A stretch of 64,000 bases of DNA from an uncultured Methanoregulaceae archaeon (GCA_963705255.1 OY970061.1:1024001-1088000), one strand, 5' to 3'; positions 19,467 through 29,402 are shown, counted from the stretch's first letter. Made by a program: numbers and translations. Notes: generated by a model from the letters alone, not told the origin.

Positions 19467-20435
19467 TTACCTGAGAAGAACCCCAAAAACATCGGAGAAA
19501 CAGCGGAGAGCATCGTCGAATTTTCCGATTTTCAGGAGGGACAGTCCCTTCACGATGCTGGTACGGACATCTTTTACATCGATATAATATGCCTGATCGA
19601 ACGCCCGGGCTGACTCCTCGAGCTTTCCGAGCATGAAGCAGGAGTTGCTCATCACGACCCAGGCATCGGCGATCGAGGGATCGCGTTCGAGGGCCTTTTC
19701 GAGAGCACGGATCGCCTCGGGGTGTTTTCCGATCATGGAGAGGGCAAGCCCTTTCCGGTAAAGTGCTTTTGCGTTTTCCGGGTCTATTGCCAGCGCGCGA
19801 TCAAGAACCTCGAGGGCTTCAGCATACCGTTTCAGGTTGATCAGGGCAACACCTTTTTTGATCAGTGCGGAAAGGTAGAACGGGTATATCCGGAGAGCGC
19901 GGTCGTAACATGAGATCTCTTCGGCATACCGTTTCAGTTTTCCATACGCAAACCCCTTGTTTACCCACGCAGAAAGGTACCGGGGCCGTATCTCCAGAGC
20001 CCGGTCGCAGCAGTGGATCTCTGCATCGAACCTTCCGAGCATCCCCACAGCTACACCCTTATTATTCCAGGCAGTTGCATTCTCGGGATCTATCTCCAGC
20101 GCTCTCTCACAGCATTTCACCTTGTCTTCAAACCGGTCGAGCATGCCATAGGCAAATCCCTTGTTATTCCAGGCATCGACGCAGTCCGGATCGAGTTCGA
20201 TTGCTTTGTTGCAGCACTCGATCTCGTCTTCGTACTTGCCCAGTTTCCCGAGTGCAAACCCCCGTCCCACCCATGCAAGTGCAAGGCCGGGGTCAATGGC
20301 AAGGGCGAGTGAAAACGAGGTAAGCGCATCCTCGTGTCTTCCCTCACGTCCAAGCGAAAGGCCCTCAAGATAAAATTCCCTGCCTTTCTGATGGGGGTCC
20401 TGACTCTCTTCTGACATGGAAAACATCGAATGCAA
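19467..20435 (-). CDS. TPR repeat protein
   Basis: About 8 repeats of AWxNKG...A...DP. Confidence 0.92.
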   Translation of the reverse strand: MHSMFSMSEESQDPHQKGREFYLEGLSLGREGRHEDALTSFSLALAIDPGLALAWVGRGFALGKLGKYEDEIECCNKAIELDPDCVDAWNNKGFAYGMLDRFEDKVKCCERALEIDPENATAWNNKGVAVGMLGRFDAEIHCCDRALEIRPRYLSAWVNKGFAYGKLKRYAEEISCYDRALRIYPFYLSALIKKGVALINLKRYAEALEVLDRALAIDPENAKALYRKGLALSMIGKHPEAIRALEKALERDPSIADAWVVMSNSCFMLGKLEESARAFDQAYYIDVKDVRTSIVKGLSLLKIGKFDDALRCFSDVFGVLLR

Positions 20436-20625
20436 TTCCTATGGATGAGCGCTCGTAATAAAAGGATCTTAGTGCCCGTGATATTTATTTTCACGGATTG
20501 GTCTCTGCAGCCGCTATTGCCCGACAGCGGTACAGATACACGGAATGATTACCCGGAAGCCAGGTTCTGCCGGATTCAGCTGAAAAACCCAATTTTTTAT
20601 ATATTTTTGGCATAAACTTTCAGAT

Positions 20626-20856
20626 ATGCCTGCGGGACGACCAAAAAAACTGAATAACTATGAACAGATAAAAGTGAGAAAAATCCGGAAGATTTTATCT
20701 GAAAGTAATATCCGGAAATTCGACAAGGTCAATGATTCTGCGCTTCTGAAGACAATTTACATCGATCCTTCGGGGAAAATTTTTATATGCCATGATTTCT
20801 ACGAAAATTCGATGAAAGAGATTTCTGCAATAGTTTCGGGATTTATTGAAAAATAG
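20626..20856 (+). CDS. Small basic hypothetical protein (N-terminal GRPKK motif)
   Basis: 76-aa ORF downstream of TATA-like TTTTATATAT; MPAGRPKK start. Confidence 0.55.
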   Translation: MPAGRPKKLNNYEQIKVRKIRKILSESNIRKFDKVNDSALLKTIYIDPSGKIFICHDFYENSMKEISAIVSGFIEK

Positions 20857-21292
20857 GTGCCTATTTTTGACTCGGGAAACTTGTTGGAATATTCTCCTCC
20901 CCTTTCACGAATACCGGTTTCATATCGTCCATCGTCTCTCCAGAATGGCTGATATCGCGAGGCCGGGACAACGGTCGCACTGCCGGGTATAATCCCTCCG
21001 GTAAAGGATGCCTTTTTGTAAAGGAGATCCCGGACAGACTGATCGAACAGGTGGTATCGTTCCTGCACTACTGATTAAATGAGAATACAATCCTGCATTA
21101 TTTGCGAGGGATACCCGGGTCCACAGCCAGGATCTGGACACAAATCACTATACGAGACAGGGGGAGTTCATTCTGCCGAAGGATTAGGGTTACCCGGCTC
21201 CCTCTGGCACAGAAGTGCCACTGCTCCTTTACGGTGTAAATGCCAAAACAATTTCGGTATATTTATAATATATTGCGAATGAAACTGAATTC

Positions 21293-21880
21293 TTGAAACC
21301 CCAACATCCCGAGGATACCGGATCGTCAAGCCCCCTGGGAACGATCCTGATGGTCATGATCACCATCGTGCTCGCAGCACTCGTCCTGCTCGTTGCCCTC
21401 CAGCTGCCGGGCCTGTCGTACGACCCGACGGTTCCAACCGTGTTTGAGATCACAAAAATCAAGGATATTAAGAATGGCGTGCTGAATTACGATAGTTACA
21501 TGGTAGTAAAAAACTGCGGGAGTTCCAGTTATTATAACTGGAACCTTTTCGTCCTGACTTATGTCAACGGAGCGCAGATACCTGCGGAGATACCAACCTT
21601 AAATGCCAATGCACAGGCCGCCGACCACATCCACCATGGCGTCCAGAATCTTGGGGGATTCGGATCGGAAGGGACAAGGAAAAAAGGCGATGCACTGTGG
21701 GTACCGGGAGCATCCCTTTCGATCGATTACAAGGATGGCACATTCCATCCGGGCGACATGGTCACCATCGAAGTCTACGACAACACGACAAAACAGATCC
21801 TCTCGCGCGACACCTGGCCGCATAAAGACGATCCCGGGGAGAAATTGATGAAACAATATCTCAATCATCGAGGCGCTTGA
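21293..21880 (+). CDS. Archaeal type IV pilin (class III signal peptide)
   Basis: [26 protein letters not shown]-terminal pilin helix; [14 protein letters not shown]-terminal motif; start codon uncertain. Confidence 0.8.
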
Positions 21881-22052
21881 AGACGCCTTTTTTCACCTTG
21901 AGGATCTTGCACTCAGGACAGCGCCATGTATCAGGAATGTCCTCAAAGGCCGTCCCGGGCGCAATCCCGTTTTTGGGGTCTCCCTTGGCCGGATCATAGA
22001 TATAATGGCATTCGAGGCATACCCACCGGGCAAGTTTTGTAACATGTGTCAT
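21861..22052 (-). CDS. Rubredoxin
   Basis: [16 protein letters not shown]...[17 protein letters not shown]. Confidence 0.95.
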
Positions 22053-22152
22053 GATAATACAATTCCTGAACATGTGCCGGATGTATCATTTGATTCACCC
22101 TCCAATCATATGAAAGCATCTCTCATAGCAGCCGGAACGTTCATGGAGCATT

Positions 22153-22722
22153 TTAACAGGGATTGCGGGGATCAGGGGCAGCACTCCGGGCGCAGAGCCG
22201 TGCCACGCGCAATGGTTCGGGGATCTTACCTTCAAGGGTAAAGTCGTTACACAATACTGCCGCATCCCGGTGTTCAATGCCCCATGAACGGATGAAGATG
22301 GTCTGGTGCGTCCGCAGCGCAACCGGTGAACGTTTCCCGAGCTCCATGTACCGGGTCACCCGTGTCAGGTCGTCAGGAAAATGACGGCGGATATCCCCGA
22401 GCAGTCCGTCGGAATCCTCGTAGGTGACACAAATAACCGGGAGGCCGGTCTTTTCATGAATCACAACAGGGCTGATAACGTTAAACCAGGCGATGACGCA
22501 ACCGGACAACATAACCACGTTAAGATCGCTCCGCTCAAGGTCCCGGATCATCGCAAGTATTGTGTCGGTAGCATCCACCCCGCCAACAGTCACTGTGCCA
22601 AACGAGAAGCCGTCAATGCGGAGATCTTTTCGCATCACCACGCCGGCAAGGGTGGACAAGGTTCGCCCGGAATAACTTTCTGCTATACCGAATGCCCGCA
22701 ACCCTTTTTTCGGGACATGCAT
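22153..22722 (-). CDS. DUF99 family protein (endonuclease V-like fold)
   Basis: GIAES, TVGGVDATD, GCVIAWFNVI, IPEPLRVA. Confidence 0.85.
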   Translation of the reverse strand: MHVPKKGLRAFGIAESYSGRTLSTLAGVVMRKDLRIDGFSFGTVTVGGVDATDTILAMIRDLERSDLNVVMLSGCVIAWFNVISPVVIHEKTGLPVICVTYEDSDGLLGDIRRHFPDDLTRVTRYMELGKRSPVALRTHQTIFIRSWGIEHRDAAVLCNDFTLEGKIPEPLRVARLCARSAAPDPRNPC

Positions 22723-22760
22723 AGAAGCACTTATGATAACCGATTAAAAATACTATACCA

Positions 22761-23684
22761 ATGAAATTCAACAAAGACGAGGTCTGCATCCTCATCCCCA
22801 CGCTCAATGAAGGTCCCACTATTGGAACTGTTGTCAGGGAATTCAAGGGACTCGGATACGACCATATTCTCGTAGTTGACGGGAAGAGTACCGATAACAC
22901 GGTAAAAATTGCCCGGGAAGCCGGGGCAAATGTCCGCACACAATCGGGCGTGGGCAAAGGCAATGCAATTATCGAGGCTTTTGAAGTCATCGAGCAGCCT
23001 TATATTCTCATGGTTGACGGTGACGGCACCTACTCGGCAAAAGATGCGGAAAAGATGCTGACCCCCCTGTTCCTGGGATTTGACCAGGTCATCGGGGATC
23101 GCCTCATCAACGCAGAAGAAGGCTCATTCTCTGGGCTCAACCTCTTTGGCAACCATATGCTGAACCTCCTTTTCAAAGTGGCCCACAGCAGGGACCTTCA
23201 TGATATCCTGTCGGGATACCGCGCCTTCACCAAGTTAGCGGTCCAGCAGATGCATCTGAAAGAGAAAGGGTTCGAGATCGAAACGGAAATCTCAGTTGAG
23301 TCCGTGCGGAACGGCCAGAGGATCATGGTCGTCCCCATCCGGTATTCCCGGCGCCCGGGGACGGCGACAAAACTTTCCCCGTTCCATGACGGTATCAAGA
23401 TTGTGAGCACGATATACCGGCTTGCACGGGTCAATAACCCCATGTTCTATTTTGGCATGATGGGCATTTTCACATCCCTCTTGGGCATCCTCACCGGGAT
23501 TTATGTCGTGCAGGAGTGGCTGCACGGGATCAACCACATTCCCCTGACGATCCTCACGGTGCTGCTTATCGTCGTTGGTATAGAAATTTTCATGTTCGGT
23601 ATGATCAGCGATATGCTTCTTGTCTTCCACCGGGAAATTATCCGTGAGATCCAGCTCCTCCAGTCCCCGAAGTCTCCGAAGTAA
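22761..23684 (+). CDS. aglJ: GT2 dolichol-phosphate glycosyltransferase, AglJ-like
   Basis: LIPTLNE, VVDGKSTD, DGDGTY, DILSGYRAF, GFEIETE, KLSPFHDG plus two C-terminal TMs. Confidence 0.82.
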   Translation: MKFNKDEVCILIPTLNEGPTIGTVVREFKGLGYDHILVVDGKSTDNTVKIAREAGANVRTQSGVGKGNAIIEAFEVIEQPYILMVDGDGTYSAKDAEKMLTPLFLGFDQVIGDRLINAEEGSFSGLNLFGNHMLNLLFKVAHSRDLHDILSGYRAFTKLAVQQMHLKEKGFEIETEISVESVRNGQRIMVVPIRYSRRPGTATKLSPFHDGIKIVSTIYRLARVNNPMFYFGMMGIFTSLLGILTGIYVVQEWLHGINHIPLTILTVLLIVVGIEIFMFGMISDMLLVFHREIIREIQLLQSPKSPK

Positions 23685-23707
23685 TCTTTTCTGCCTTGTC
23701 CTGAAAA

Positions 23708-23724
23708 TTTTTTTAATACCACAC
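23708..23724 (+). repeat. Left direct repeat of AT-rich cassette (TTTTTTTAATACCACAC)
   Basis: Identical 17-mer at 25017-25033; extends to 20/21 with the following xGTT. Confidence 0.85.
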
Positions 23725-23973
23725 GGTTGATTGTTAATTATTTAAAAAATAATTTGAATAAAGTTCAATTTCCCCATAGCAGCACTTTAACACCGATGGT
23801 GCGATGCTCTTTTCTGAAAAATCTTAAGTACTAGCGAAAGTGCAATCAATTTGACACTGTTTTTTTCATCCATATACAAATGTGAATAACGACATCACAC
23901 ATTCGATTAAACAATACGTTTATTATTCACCTAATTATAATTGCATTGAATAGCAGATTTGCTGGAATCCCCA

Positions 23974-24528
23974 ATGCCAGATGAAATTCCCCAAATAGAT
24001 GAAAAGTGCGACGAGGAAACTATAGCAAAAGATGAGCTTATTCTAAATTTGATTTCACGTCGTAATGATGCGGAATTTGAAAGAAATAACATTCTTGACA
24101 ACAAAGCAAGTGGCATTATTGGATTTGCTGGAATTATTATCGGTCTACTTGGAACTATAATTTCATTTTTATTAGATAAATTAACTCAGGGATCATCTCT
24201 TTTAATTTACTATAACAGTTATCGAGTAATTTTACTATTTGGAATTTTGTTTTTAGCAGCAGCAATAATCTTATGTTGCTATGCATATTCGATTAAAGTC
24301 TATACGATAGTTCCAAAAACAGATATGTTAATTGAAAATTATGCGAGGGATAAAAAAAAGAATAAATGCACTGTTATTCGTGTTGTTGGTCAAGAAATTT
24401 CTCTAGGAATCTTAAAAAATGCTGCAATTAATGATGAAAAAGCGAAATGTGTGAAGTATGGATTACGATTATATGCCTTTGGAATGGCATTAACCGTACT
24501 TTTTTTTATAGGTCTTTTAATGGTTTAA
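23974..24528 (+). CDS. 3-TM membrane protein resembling Pycsar/CBASS-type membrane effectors
   Basis: NILDNKASGIIGFAGIIIG (TM1), second TM, KNAAINDEKAKCV then TM3; AT-rich codon usage; family similarity judged by eye. Confidence 0.6.
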   Translation: MPDEIPQIDEKCDEETIAKDELILNLISRRNDAEFERNNILDNKASGIIGFAGIIIGLLGTIISFLLDKLTQGSSLLIYYNSYRVILLFGILFLAAAIILCCYAYSIKVYTIVPKTDMLIENYARDKKKNKCTVIRVVGQEISLGILKNAAINDEKAKCVKYGLRLYAFGMALTVLFFIGLLMV

Positions 24529-24540
24529 AGAGGTCAACTT

Positions 24541-24684
24541 ATGGAGAAAGAACAGGTTATTGGTAAAAAAGCACCGCCGGAAAAATCCAGTGATACCCAA
24601 ACAGTGTCATGGGGCACTAATGATCGAACATTAAGAGATGTTCAACTGAATAAACAACCTATTCCGAAAAGAGGGAAGAAGTAA
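24541..24684 (+). CDS. SWGT-motif peptide 1 (47 aa)
   Basis: MEKEQVIGKKAPPEKSSDTQTVSWGTNDRTLRDVQLNKQPIPKRGKK*; SD-like GAGGT upstream. Confidence 0.8.
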   Translation: MEKEQVIGKKAPPEKSSDTQTVSWGTNDRTLRDVQLNKQPIPKRGKK

Positions 24685-24816
24685 ATGGCGGAGAAAGAAA
24701 AAACCGATGAGAAGCCAAAAACAGAATCATGGGGTACTGAAGATCCTAAGATTAGAGAAGATCGAGCGTTATCAAGAAATGAGGAGCGCAAGAAGAAAGA
24801 ACTAAACGAAGAGTGA
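24685..24816 (+). CDS. SWGT-motif peptide 2 (43 aa)
   Basis: MAEKEKTDEKPKTESWGTEDPKIREDRALSRNEERKKKELNEE*; ATG directly follows the TAA of peptide 1. Confidence 0.8.
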   Translation: MAEKEKTDEKPKTESWGTEDPKIREDRALSRNEERKKKELNEE

Positions 24817-24820
24817 TCAA

Positions 24821-24955
24821 ATGACTGACGAACCTAAAAAAAGGCAGGAACCAACTAATACAACAAGCTGGGGAACAGCTGATCCAAGTTTGAGAGATGA
24901 AATCAAAGAAGCAAGAGTTCCTCGAAAACGTGATCCCAATGAAATAATCAAATAA
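24821..24955 (+). CDS. SWGT-motif peptide 3 (44 aa)
   Basis: MTDEPKKRQEPTNTTSWGTADPSLRDEIKEARVPRKRDPNEIIK*; SD-like GAGTGAT upstream; T-rich tract downstream. Confidence 0.8.
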   Translation: MTDEPKKRQEPTNTTSWGTADPSLRDEIKEARVPRKRDPNEIIK

Positions 24956-25016
24956 TCTTCTTTTACAATTTTTATAAATGTTTAATTATAGATATTTCAA
25001 AAATTGGTTTTCTATG

Positions 25017-25033
25017 TTTTTTTAATACCACAC
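25017..25033 (+). repeat. Right direct repeat of AT-rich cassette
   Basis: TTTTTTTAATACCACAC identical to 23708-23724; composition returns towards genome average after it. Confidence 0.85.
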
Positions 25034-25328
25034 TGTTACGGTAAATACCTTGAGAAATAACCGGAATGATGGTAGGGCAGTGCTGAACCCGCCTGTCTCG
25101 TATGGAGTGGGTGGGACTCAGGAATATAAAAAGCAACAGAGGTGAAAAAAGTCATCGGCTGCAGCATTTCTTGCACGCTTTTATGCATACCGGAGAGCGC
25201 CGGTTCAGGTGAGCAATGCGGGATAAAGCGAGGGGAATCGATGTTCGTTCGCAAAGAGAGAGAAGAACAATTTCCGGATTGGGATTTTTTCCGAAAACCT
25301 TTTTTGTGTATTTCCTAAAGAATTACTT

Positions 25329-25547
25329 ATGCAGTCGATAGATGGGTATATCGGGTATACGCGTCGGGAATATTGTAATGATGTGAAATGCCCGATACAA
25401 CTGCTCCTGAATAACGAAGTGGAAAAATCTCCCAAATATGAAGAAATCCGGGCGATTTGTGCTTCCAATTGTCTCCACAGCACCCATGAATTTCACCACT
25501 GGTTGACAGGGAAGGGATATCTCGTCGTCAGACCGGAGCACAAATAA
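25329..25547 (+). CDS. Small Cys/His-rich putative metal-binding protein
   Basis: YC-x4-CP, IC-x3-C, HEFHHWL; first gene of the lsrF-ADH unit. Confidence 0.7.
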   Translation: MQSIDGYIGYTRREYCNDVKCPIQLLLNNEVEKSPKYEEIRAICASNCLHSTHEFHHWLTGKGYLVVRPEHK

Positions 25548-25597
25548 CCCCAGCTTTTTATACATTTGTGTATCACTAATTCTCGTGAAGTGTCCCC

Positions 25598-26422
25598 ATG
25601 GTACATGCATATCTTGATATTGGAATCCAGAGCCGGATGAACCGGATAATCAATCCGAAAGATAACCGGGTAGTGATGCTTGCGATAGACCATCCCTATT
25701 TCCAGGGACCGACAACGGGCCTCCGCACCATGAGTAACACCATAACAACACTCCTCCCCTATTGCGATTGCCTGATGACGACACGCGGGGCAGTGCGGTC
25801 CAATATTGCGCCCGAAAATGTCGGGTCAAAACCCATCATGTTACGTGTTACCGGGGGAAACAGCGTCTTAAATGAAGAGTTAAGTGATGAAAAGCTCACG
25901 GTTACAATAAAAGAAGCCATCCGGATGGATGCGGCCGGTGTCGCGGTCAGTGTGTATATAGGCTCTGCCAATCAGCAACAGACTATTCTCAACCTCACCG
26001 ACATGATCAACCAGGCCGGCGAATACGGAATTCCCGTTCTGGCAGTAACAGCCGTGGGGAAAAACATGGCCCGGGATTTGCGCTATCTGGCGCTTGCATC
26101 CCGTATCTGCCAGGATGCCGGGGCCCGGATTATCAAGACTTATTATTGTGAGGAATTTTCCCGGCTTGTCGACTGGGTTTCCCCGACTGCTGTCGTGGTT
26201 GCAGGAGGGAAATACTCAAGTCCTCCTGACGCTCTCCAGATGGCCTACGACTCTGTCCAGGCCGGTGCTGTCGGAGTTGATTTCGGACGAAATATTTTCC
26301 AGGATGCCAATCCTGTCGGCATGATCAAAGCCATTGGTTCAATTGTCCATGGAAATCATACCGTAAAGGAAGCCCTGGATATTTACAATGCATGCTTACC
26401 CGGTGCATGCAAGCTCGACTGA
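25598..26422 (+). CDS. lsrF: LsrF-like thiolase / class I (DhnA-family) aldolase
   Basis: MLAIDHPYFQGPTTGL, LAVTAVGKNMARD, IIKTYYC, VVAGG, GVDFGRNIFQ. Confidence 0.82.
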   Translation: MVHAYLDIGIQSRMNRIINPKDNRVVMLAIDHPYFQGPTTGLRTMSNTITTLLPYCDCLMTTRGAVRSNIAPENVGSKPIMLRVTGGNSVLNEELSDEKLTVTIKEAIRMDAAGVAVSVYIGSANQQQTILNLTDMINQAGEYGIPVLAVTAVGKNMARDLRYLALASRICQDAGARIIKTYYCEEFSRLVDWVSPTAVVVAGGKYSSPPDALQMAYDSVQAGAVGVDFGRNIFQDANPVGMIKAIGSIVHGNHTVKEALDIYNACLPGACKLD

Positions 26423-26464
26423 TTTTTTATCTCTTAAACAGTTACTCTCCACTCGTGAACAGGA

Positions 26465-27517
26465 ATGAAAGCAGCGGTCTATTATAAGAACAGTGACATC
26501 CGCACCGAGGATGTTGAAGATCCGGCAGTCGGACCAGGAGAGATCAAGGTCAGGATCATGGCGTGCGGAGTGTGCGGGTCGGATGTCATGGAATGGTACC
26601 GGATTAAGCGTGCGGGAAGGCCCGGCGGGATCGGGGCCTTTGGGCATGAATGCACGGGAATCATTGCAGAAGCCGGTCCCGGCGCAGACAAAAAATGGAA
26701 GGTGGGAGACCGGGTCGTGGTCACCCATCATGTACCATGCACTACGTGTAATGCCTGTATACGCGGGCATACGACCGCATGTGACACGCTGCAAAAAACC
26801 AAATTCAAGAATGCGTACGGGGCGTTTGCGGAATATGTGGTGCTGCCCGCAATCAACGTGGACCGGGGTATATTACGCCTCCCCGAATCGGTTTCTTTTG
26901 ATGCGGGAACCTTTGTTGAACCCCTCGGGTGTGTAGTCCGCGGGCAGCAACTGGCTCCGACCTCGGATGGCCGGTCAGTCCTTATCATTGGCGCCGGGAT
27001 CACCGGACTGCTGCATGTCCAGGCAGCCCGGCTGAACGGTGCGGGATTTATTGCTGTTTCCAACCCGAGTCCTGATCGGTTGAAGGCCGCCCGGAAATTC
27101 GGTGCCGATGCAACCATTTCCGCTACGGAAGATGTTCCCGGAAGGTTTAAAGAATTAAATGGCGGCCTGGGCGCAGACACCGTCATCATGACCGCACCGG
27201 TTCCCGTCTGCGTGAAACAGTCGCTTGACGCAGTCGGACCCGGGGGTACGATCTTATTTTTTGCCCCCACAAATCCTGAGATCCAATCCGAAATCAATCT
27301 CTGGAACCTGTGGCAGAAAGAGATCACAATCACCCATTCCTATGCTGCCGATCTCCATAACCTGACAACTGCCCTGAAATGGATCCAGTATAACCGGATA
27401 AATGTAGCCGATATGATAACCCATGTTCTTCCCTTACAAGAAACGGCTGAAGGTTTTCTCCTGACTGCCCGGCACCGGGACGGTAGTTTAAAAGTTATCA
27501 TCCATCCACAGGAATAA
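26465..27517 (+). CDS. Zn-dependent medium-chain alcohol dehydrogenase
   Basis: CGVCGSD, GHE, CxxCxxC..C structural Zn, GAGITG. Confidence 0.92.
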   Translation: MKAAVYYKNSDIRTEDVEDPAVGPGEIKVRIMACGVCGSDVMEWYRIKRAGRPGGIGAFGHECTGIIAEAGPGADKKWKVGDRVVVTHHVPCTTCNACIRGHTTACDTLQKTKFKNAYGAFAEYVVLPAINVDRGILRLPESVSFDAGTFVEPLGCVVRGQQLAPTSDGRSVLIIGAGITGLLHVQAARLNGAGFIAVSNPSPDRLKAARKFGADATISATEDVPGRFKELNGGLGADTVIMTAPVPVCVKQSLDAVGPGGTILFFAPTNPEIQSEINLWNLWQKEITITHSYAADLHNLTTALKWIQYNRINVADMITHVLPLQETAEGFLLTARHRDGSLKVIIHPQE

Positions 27518-27811
27518 CATCTTTTTGCTCCATTATCTGCATTGTGGTCTGATGCATTCGCGGGACGGTTGGAATAGCAGCTCATTTCAGATTACGAAGA
27601 AAACGATCTCATCGGGTCCCGACCGTGCAGAAGAACCGGTTCCCGGATATTCTTTAAAAAAAAGTTTTTAGGCCTTTTTTTACCTTTCGCGGGAATGCAA
27701 GAGATTATTACTACTTCTGACATAACCCCTTTTTATACAGGATCGCACTCATCTCGCTTCTCCGGCATTCCGTTGCGAACGAAATGCGGCCCTGGATTCA
27801 GGATGTGAATC

Positions 27812-29402
27812 GTGAATCTGCGACAACCCAATGCAAATGAGGCAACAGGTACCATAAACCGTTCGAGAAATGTCTCCCCAATGTCCGGGATCTGTTCCCG
27901 GTGTATTGACGGGTGCAAGGGAAACTGCGAGTTATGGCTGTCATCATTCCGGGGGAGGGAAGTACCTCTATCCCGGACCATTCGGGGAAGTCACTGCGGG
28001 GGCTGACAAGAATTATCCCGTCGACTATTCCCACCTCAACATCCAGGGGTATGCCGTCGGTGCCAAAGGTATGCCTGAAGGTGTAGAGGCAGGTCCTGAT
28101 ACCGCGGTCTTCTCATCGGTCAATACCGAGACATCGTACGGGTGGAATCTCAAAGTAAAGATGCGCCTCCCCATCTTTACCGGTGCTTTGGGTTCGACTG
28201 AGATCGCACGGGTGAACTGGGAGCAGATTGCAATTGGAGCAGCGATTTCCGGAATAACCTGTGTCTGCGGTGAAAATGTCTGTGGTGTTGACCCCCAGCT
28301 TGAACTGGACATGAATGGAAAAGTGAAAAAATCGCCGGAAATGGACAGGCGCGTGGAAATTTACCGCCGTTTTTCTGAAGGATACGGTGAAATGCTGGTC
28401 CAGATGAATGTCGAGGACACACGGATCGGTGCTGCTGAATATGTGGCGAGCAGGCATAACTTGGAAACGATCGAACTCAAATGGGGCCAAGGTGCAAAAA
28501 GTATCGGGGGTGAGATCAAAGTCCCGACTCTGGAACGCGCGGCCGAGTTGAAAAAAAGAGGGTATATCGTACTACCGGACCCGACGGTGAAAGTACATCA
28601 GATATCCTTTAAATCAGGTGCCGTAAGGGAGTTCGAACGTCACTCAAGACTAGGGTTTGTGACCCGGGAGGGATTTCTGGAAGAAGTTGATCGTCTCCGG
28701 GATATCGGCTTCAAACGGATCACCCTGAAGACCGGGGCCTATTCCGCGGTGGAACTTGCAATGGCCATCCGGTATGGAGCAGAAGCAAAGATAGACCTGC
28801 TCACCATCGATGGGGCCTCGGGAGGTACGGGTATGAGTCCGTGGCCGATGATGAATGAGTGGGGGATCCCCACTTTTTACCTCCAGTCACTGATGTACGA
28901 ATTCTGCGAGCGGTTGAGCCGCAAGGGTATGAAAGTCCCGGATATCGCGATGGCCGGGGGGTTCACGGATGAGCCAAACGTCTTCAAGGCACTGGCCATG
29001 GGAAGCCCTTACGTTAAGGCGGTCTGTATGGGGAGGGGCCTGATGATTCCCGCGATGGTGGGAAAAAATATCGGCAAGTGGCTTGCTGCCGGTGAACTGC
29101 CGAAAACCGTCTCGAAATACGGGACGGTTGCAGAAAAGATATTTGTCTGTTATGAGGATCTGAAGCAGAAATATGGAGAACGTATGAAAGAAATACCACT
29201 CGGCGCACTTGGCATGTATACCTTTGCCGAGAAGTTCCGGACCGGTTTCCAGCAGATTATGGCAGGAACCAGAAATTTCTCCATACCGTATGTTTCGCGC
29301 CGGGACGTCATGGCGCTTACCGAGGAGGCTGCAACTATTTCCGGTATCGCCTACGTAATGAAGGCTTATAAAGATGAGGCGCTTGAAATTCTGCTGGACT
29401 GA
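27812..29402 (+). CDS. FMN-binding glutamate synthase family protein (stand-alone type), frameshift near 27965
   Basis: N-terminal SGICSRCIDGCKGNC...SFRGREV joins LYPGPFG in another frame; ELKWGQGAKSIGGE, TIDGASGGTGMSP. Confidence 0.88.

Follow-up and report, generated by a model that had tools for sequence, protein, structure and literature searches.

Three adjacent micro-ORFs at 24541-24955 of the analysed window, a 64,000-nt stretch of DNA from an uncultured Methanoregulaceae archaeon, are almost certainly real protein-coding genes. Comparative sequence analysis indicates that they very probably form a functional unit with the membrane-protein gene directly upstream, and that this unit is, with much the same confidence, a mobile cassette. 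We favour, at a probability of roughly 0.45, a model in which the peptides restrain a pore-forming effector within a module resembling toxin-antitoxin (TA) or abortive-infection (Abi) systems. The features of the cassette are as follows.

23708-23728 (no strand): left copy of the direct repeat, 21 nt, a target duplication; matches 25017-25037 at 20 of 21 nt
23729-23973 (+): AT-rich 5' part, presumed promoter, from the GC profile and a AATTATAA element ~35 nt before the ATG
23974-24528 (+): membrane-protein gene, 184 aa from ATG 23974; start in the ORF list, TTG 23959
24541-24684 (+): micro-gene 1, 47 aa, motif SWGTNDRTLRD; SD-like GAGGT at 24530-24534, 6 nt upstream
24685-24816 (+): micro-gene 2, 43 aa, motif SWGTEDPKIRE; SD-like GAGGG before the start
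24821-24955 (+): micro-gene 3, 44 aa, motif SWGTADPSLRD followed by EIKEARVPRKRDPNEIIK; SD-like GAGTGAT before the start
24956-25016 (+): T-rich 3' end, presumed terminator region; homology to sister genomes resumes only at 25017
25017-25037 (no strand): right 21-nt direct repeat, the second copy; the sister-genome match begins here

The genes of the cassette are tightly spaced. Twelve nucleotides separate the membrane gene from ORF1, the ORF1 stop abuts the ORF2 start (0 nt), and ORF2 and ORF3 lie 4 nt apart. The first-pass annotation had pointed out SD-like GAGGT and GAGTGAT elements and a TAA-ATG junction; all are found in the sequence, the junction at 24682-24687. The cores of ORF1, ORF2 and ORF3 (TVSWGTNDRTLRD, TESWGTEDPKIRE and TTSWGTADPSLRD) have in common the pattern M...T-x-S-W-G-T-x-D-x-x-[LI]-R-[DE]. 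Its codons, in the order ORF1/2/3, are TCA/TCA/AGC for Ser, GGC/GGT/GGA for Gly, ACT/ACT/ACA for Thr and TTA/ATT/TTG for Leu/Ile, while Trp (TGG), Asp (GAT) and Arg (AGA) are invariant, in agreement with the synonymous changes and fixed W, D and R positions listed earlier. DNA identity between the ORFs over the 45-nt motif stretch is 60-71%, and paralogue pairs show pS of 0.65-0.88 versus pN of 0.39-0.46. With motif residues fixed, codons changing synonymously and DNA this divergent, the proposal that the ORFs are conserved as protein rather than as DNA stands.

To place the motif in its genomic context, we scanned the whole 2.6-Mb genome in six frames (67,144 stop-to-stop frames of at least 20 aa). 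The pattern [ST]WG[TSE].D occurs four times, and three of these occurrences fall in 24541-24955; this clustering is not due to chance. A peptide HMM run against the same 67,144 frames gave no match at E < 0.7 beyond the three window ORFs, and an independent genome search returned the same three peptides and no others. Scans for tRNA genes and for Rfam families (E <= 1, over 20000-28000) gave no match.

The cassette coincides with a low-GC patch (~30-37%, with 33% for the cassette itself) in surroundings of ~52%. The right flank is 91-93% identical to three genomes of the same genus, the match beginning exactly at 25017. In G092, G171 and G161 the site is empty: the flanks are contiguous and hold one copy of the repeat, and hence 1309 nt have been inserted with duplication of host sequence. 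The 15-nt core of the repeat is present in exactly 2 copies in the window, compared to 0 expected. A second cassette, at L032, is bounded by a repeat of 36-48 nt (L032:980-1027 and 2246-2293) with a spacing of 1266 nt. Among 13 loci scanned, flank repeats rose above those in shuffled sequence at the window and L032 only, the 11 others having none. Cassette GC is 31-38% in 11 loci irrespective of flank GC, which ranges from 32 to 62%. We found no recombinase gene inside the insertion. The host-derived repeats that bound the two cassettes differ greatly in length (21 versus 36-48 nt), and we can name no fitting transposition mechanism. A clean insertion that has an empty site but lacks a recombinase gene makes the mode of transfer of such mini-cassettes a question in its own right. 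Both the upstream PycTM-like membrane gene and the nature of the whole unit as a mobile low-GC insertion lie beyond what the first-pass annotation had described.

Linkage between the membrane gene and the micro-ORFs is seen at all close loci (19/19). Close homologues of the membrane protein have 1-4 micro-ORFs downstream in 8/8 genomes and 11/11 metagenome loci, so that similar peptides do exist elsewhere; in the metagenome set, 2-4 motif-bearing micro-ORFs lie directly 3' of the gene in 11/11. One of these 11 loci is a contig of genome G120, and some loci are identical over the cassette region (L014 = L015; L021 = L022 = L023; L019 = L024). A class-level survey found the membrane protein in 6/401 genomes, each with 2-4 micro-ORFs (6/6), and a genus-level survey found the cassette in 1/104 other genomes. 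At the phylum level, a homologue of the membrane protein (E <= 1e-3) is present in 24/401 genomes. Two of the new phylum matches reach E <= 1e-30; L032 has two peptides, and L033 has one, 530 nt downstream.

Beyond these loci, a distant clade of the membrane protein (E 1e-8 to 1e-12) is followed at 5 loci by 1-2 K/E-rich micro-ORFs that lack Trp. The micro-ORFs of these loci (L037, L038, L039, L041 and L054, in genomes G499, G680, G529 and G732) contain 'EPVEIKPDP[ED]L', and the deepest core common to the whole peptide family may be 'D-P-x-L'. In L038, L039 and L041 the micro-ORFs are followed by a HicB/HicA pair, and L041 also has a TIR-domain gene upstream. No comparable micro-ORF accompanies the distant homologues L034, L035, L036, L045, L048, L050, L051 and L053, and none was seen at L040 or L042; L043 ends at the membrane gene. 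Partial or fragmentary matches (L044, L046, L047, L049, L052 and L055-L058) were left out of this distant survey.

Searches with peptide profiles are insensitive: profile A3 matched G120 alone among the 401 class genomes, though 4 more of these genomes carry diverged peptides. Two weak family-level matches, in G034 and G053, were set aside as spurious, one lying inside a 459-aa ORF and the other in a 374-aa open frame. The peptide HMM found no further match at E < 1.7 in 4,772 frames of related loci. Nor did we find fused forms: in ~160 relatives of the membrane protein there is no extension carrying the peptide motif (best HMM E 1.6).

We aligned 32 peptides of 38-54 aa. Trp is present in 32/32, Leu or Ile 7 or 8 residues past it is nearly invariant, and Asp at Trp +4 or +5 is usual. 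The motif can be written W-x3-D-[P]-x-L-[RQ], with Asp 4 residues past Trp and Leu/Ile 3 past Asp; in two clades a one-residue insertion makes the Asp spacing 5. Outside the motif the peptides are K/E/P-rich and diverge fast, and several have Pro-rich stretches before the Trp. SD-like sequences lie upstream of most micro-ORF starts, and 19 loci that differ widely in sequence retain the frames, starts and SD-like elements. Most differences within the close clade (L019, L020 and L021) fall at third codon positions, and dN/dS there is 0.06-0.18 for the peptides versus 0.09-0.14 for the membrane gene. The corresponding values for L030 versus L031 are 0.48-0.49 and 0.29, based on small counts. Purifying selection in the close pairs, together with the unbroken conservation of Trp, upholds the view that the peptides are selected as proteins.

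Two of the peptides also have positional orthologues. Peptide 2 has orthologues at L014:3678-3812 and L017:1070-1192, and peptide 3 at L014:3818-3952, L017:1335-1466 and L016:2442-2594. In L014 and L017 the counterparts of peptides 2 and 3 are reciprocal-best matches in the same array position (normalised scores 0.41-0.53), and hence the paralogues are older than these lineages, which fits the old duplication suggested by the first-pass annotation. Counterparts of peptide 1 in these two loci are less clear, with scores of about 0.2-0.27.

The same annotation had spoken of a variable array, and the copy number, mostly 2-4, bears this out, as do two unusual members. At L020:657-797, the third micro-ORF is a hybrid of the N-terminal half of peptide B and the C-terminal half of peptide A, which points to recombination between array members. 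The middle member in G120 (L005:1664-1801) has no ATG, GTG or TTG after the previous stop and shows a degenerate motif, NEWGNDENRVR. This copy is probably in decay, unless it starts at an upstream overlapping ATG at 1580. Synonymous divergence in the close clade suggests that arrays exchange members: dS is 0.23-0.43 for peptide A, higher than the 0.06-0.11 of the membrane gene next to it.

The peptides have a mean GRAVY of -1.9 and 48% charged residues, and Cys occurs in 2/32 of them. They are probably cytoplasmic, since none has a hydrophobic or signal segment. An acidic leader and basic tail had been read into the window peptides; net charges of 0, 0 and -1 for the leaders and +5, 0 and +2 for the tails do not agree with this. 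For peptide 3 modelled alone, AF2 predicts a single helix, at residues 22-32 directly past the motif, and disorder elsewhere (pLDDT 68.5). Such predicted disorder with a short helix after the motif is typical of a short binding motif, not of a folded or secreted protein. No family for the peptides emerged from Pfam, PADLOC, NCBIfam or PHROGs, an excisionase PHROG at E 0.086 being at chance level, and the best score against the Atlas (0.79) was below threshold. The idea that the peptides mimic a membrane-protein loop (W-x-x-V-P...L-I-E-x-Y) was dropped, as profiles A6 and A4, when compared, showed no likeness (probability 0.05%). The expectation that the micro-ORFs would be missed by annotation was half right: the protein collection that we searched already contains all three, yet the NCBI entries for relatives from Methanoregula sp. 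and Methanolacinia paynteri give the name 'hypothetical protein'.

For the membrane protein, we took ATG 23974 as the start because homologues begin there (MPDE/MTD). A word-index search returned 8 homologues with 58-100% identity, and an exhaustive profile search returned 714 clusters at E <= 1e-3. AF2, given 150 relatives, predicts helices at 19-75, 79-110, 121-129 and 136-188 with a pLDDT of 93.8. From this model we infer three membrane spans, with the first and last helices reaching into a cytoplasmic bundle. PADLOC models of PycTM match the window protein at E values of 3.8e-5, 2.1e-4 and 0.012, and the alignment is nearly full-length, pairing window residues 46-184 with positions 23-149 of the 160 in the model. 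PycTM models also match 59/150 relatives (best 6e-8) and are the only defence models to do so, save for one 2TM 'Effector' match in 1/150. A precomputed PF18967 label is attached to 7/8 close homologues. In the Atlas, the neighbours of the window protein include Bacillota clusters of ~190 aa, and 10% of the members of one such cluster carry PF18967. The Pfam model PF18967 itself, however, does not match the window protein (E <= 10), did not pick out its gene in a PF18967 search of the genome, and matches 0/150 relatives at E <= 1e-3. Given PADLOC matches on one side and the missing Pfam match on the other, we call the protein PycTM-like, a weak likeness and not proven membership.

No Pfam SLATT family was detected in the 150 relatives (E <= 1e-3) or in the window protein (E <= 10), Foldseek found no solved relative in the PDB (best E 0.6), and cluster look-up gave no informative names. 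None of the viral contigs searched has the membrane protein, and tblastn of the window protein, P0115 and P0158 against phages and plasmids gave no match. At L014:2479-3519, the membrane protein (P0014, 348 aa) is in frame with an extra N-terminal hydrophobic domain of ~170 aa; this domain is unrelated to the separate membrane ORF upstream in G120.

The cassette sits in varied surroundings. In the window it is flanked by genes of ordinary archaeal kinds, for a GT2 glycosyltransferase, an endonuclease dU and a DeoC-type aldolase. Neighbours differ among 13 loci scanned with Pfam, and no gene is common to all. TA, defence or mobile-type genes are close by in 7/13: HicB/HicA and a TIR protein at L038 and L041, PIN_12 at L028, UPF0175 at L022, RadC at L032 and Bro-N at L018. 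At L016 (103-1605, 2925-4634 and 4616-5284), DUF1156 lies on one side and Schlafen/AlbA_2-HATPase_c_4 and NOV_C on the other, a gene content that looks like a defence island. In the other 6/13 loci, the neighbours examined are housekeeping genes or lack Pfam matches, and hence the defence-island signal is modest.

Several known systems resemble the cassette in part. Like the Pycsar effector PycTM (PADLOC PDLC02363-5; PF18967), the membrane protein is a small multi-helix protein (~160-190 aa) found in mobile, accessory contexts. In contrast to Pycsar, its partners are micro-peptides rather than an enzyme, and all cassettes that we found come from a single archaeal phylum. The cassette is not a Pycsar system, as judged by gene content, because the PycC cyclase is absent from the cassette, a PF00211 search of the genome, a single 2.6-Mb contig with a marker completeness of 89.5%, gave no match at E <= 0.01, and no cyclase is found among the neighbours of 13 related loci.

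SLATT-type two-TM effectors, which function in CBASS, DRT10 and related signalling defence, combine a helical membrane effector with a separate regulatory or sensing component. The cassette likewise couples a small helical membrane protein to a separate component, but has no Pfam SLATT match and no nucleotide-signalling or reverse-transcriptase partner.

In classic type II TA systems, the antitoxin gene usually comes first and its product has a DNA-binding domain. The cassette resembles such systems in its adjacent, co-oriented and tightly coupled small genes, which are co-inherited, mobile and patchy in distribution, in its disordered partner protein, and in the other TA genes (HicAB, UPF0175, PIN) that adjoin it. 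Unlike them, it has the presumed toxin gene first, its 'antitoxin' comprises 2-4 paralogous peptides of 40-50 aa, and these peptides contain no recognisable DNA-binding domain. Within the portions consulted, the literature on PycTM, SLATT effectors and Methanoregula small proteins describes no PycTM-like protein with tandem micro-genes. What would set the cassette apart is the new type of partner that its small membrane effector has.

How might such a module work? In the model that we favour, an AT-rich upstream region would drive a three-helix PycTM-like gene and 2-4 translationally coupled micro-genes, ending in the T-rich segment. Using the Trp motif, the peptides would bind the helices of the membrane protein that lie in the cytoplasm and keep the protein inactive. 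If peptide supply or stability fell, for instance on viral shut-off of host expression or on loss of the cassette, the membrane protein would oligomerise and permeabilise the membrane, as reported for PycTM effectors. PycTM is described as a disruptor of membrane integrity that acts via pore formation (PMC11224242). The cassette would then be a cyclase-independent TA-like or Abi-like module. Binding, the direction of regulation, toxicity and a role in defence are what we infer here, and toxicity in particular is assumed by analogy. Co-folding of the membrane protein with peptide 3 (1:1) gave scores of 0.00 and 0.11 versus a mark of 0.32, which, from runs that did not include controls, speak neither for nor against binding. 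One caveat is that a simple antitoxin model leaves the upkeep of 2-4 diverged paralogues unexplained.

The same cassette could also follow the opposite logic. The peptides could be sensors, activators or decoys, such as bait aimed at a protease or binding protein of a virus, or else subunits that the membrane protein needs in order to assemble, and several diverged paralogues would then widen the sensing range. The variation in copy number from 2 to 4 and the hybrid in L020 are in keeping with this idea, as is the faster divergence of the peptides (28-57% amino acid identity versus 61-69% for the membrane protein) and the array exchange suggested by the elevated dS of peptide A. However, dN/dS is well below 1 in every pair, giving no sign of diversifying selection in what are small counts, and no viral partner is known. 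We consider this reading unlikely, though worth keeping in view.

A second alternative, to which we assign a similarly low likelihood, is that the cassette encodes an accessory stress or envelope complex, in which hydrophilin-like peptides are recruited to the membrane, and that it is only incidentally mobile and plays no part in defence or addiction. The extreme hydrophilicity, K/E-richness and disorder of the peptides would suit such a role, several insertions lie among housekeeping genes, and the PycTM likeness is weak. Against it are the very patchy distribution with empty sites in sister species, the TA or defence genes beside 7/13 loci, and the specificity of the PADLOC matches to PycTM.

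The first-pass annotation had tentatively likened the micro-ORFs to RiPP precursors, and a set of several small paralogous peptides with a conserved core, next to a membrane protein, does recall such loci. The Trp core would in that case be modified by a maturase encoded elsewhere, and the product exported, perhaps through the membrane protein. Methanogens have many rSAM/SPASM genes, and finding one in this genome would therefore not tell the readings apart. The cassette, however, encodes neither a maturase nor a protease nor an ABC exporter, the insertion (23729-25016) is devoid of enzyme genes, and no maturase recurs beside the 13 loci. Because the whole cassette is transferred into unrelated neighbourhoods, no fixed partner enzyme accompanies it. 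The rarity of Cys and the high charge of the peptides argue in the same direction, and W, D and L, the sole conserved positions, resemble a binding motif with a helix cap. These data make a RiPP origin very improbable.

Equally slight is the chance that the ORFs are untranslated and the motif a by-product of a nucleotide-level RNA or DNA repeat in the 3' UTR of the membrane gene: a 45-nt direct-repeat family exists at the DNA level, but its copies are as little as 60-71% alike while motif residues are fixed, frames, start codons and SD-like elements persist in 19 loci, dN/dS is low (0.06-0.18), and Rfam gave no match (E <= 1, 20000-28000). Derivation from a broken longer gene, like the by-product of a DNA repeat, was ruled out, the frames differing both between ORFs and between loci.

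Returning to restraint of the effector by the peptides, a broader version can be put forward tentatively, and we regard it as doubtful. The cassette may represent a new mobile class of immune or addiction systems, in which disordered Trp-motif micro-proteins, present as an array, take the place of a cyclic nucleotide in gating a PycTM-type effector. Small helical membrane effectors with tandem micro-ORFs would then make up a cross-domain arrangement that includes Bacillota and has this cassette as one branch, overlooked because the second component lies below the usual limits of gene calling and annotation. If the favoured model is right, a membrane effector of the type used in nucleotide-signalling phage defence could be controlled by tiny proteins alone, and methanogenic archaea would have a compact candidate for defence or addiction. 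A conserved archaeal family of 40-50-aa proteins with a clear partner is in any event a tractable test case for micro-proteins. Even if the function turns out to be mundane, this remains a new, well-supported small-protein family that is nameless in annotation.

Two features just 3' of the insertion were noted in passing. The ~280 nt at 25040-25320 are of higher GC, hold no convincing ORF, have no Rfam match at E <= 1 and are conserved in sister genomes. Next to them, at 25329-25547 (+), is a 72-aa Cys/His-rich ORF (CNDVKCP...CASNCLHSTHEFHHW), for which Pfam and NCBIfam gave no match. It belongs to the native region, which is 91-93% identical in sister genomes, and may encode a small zinc-binding protein.
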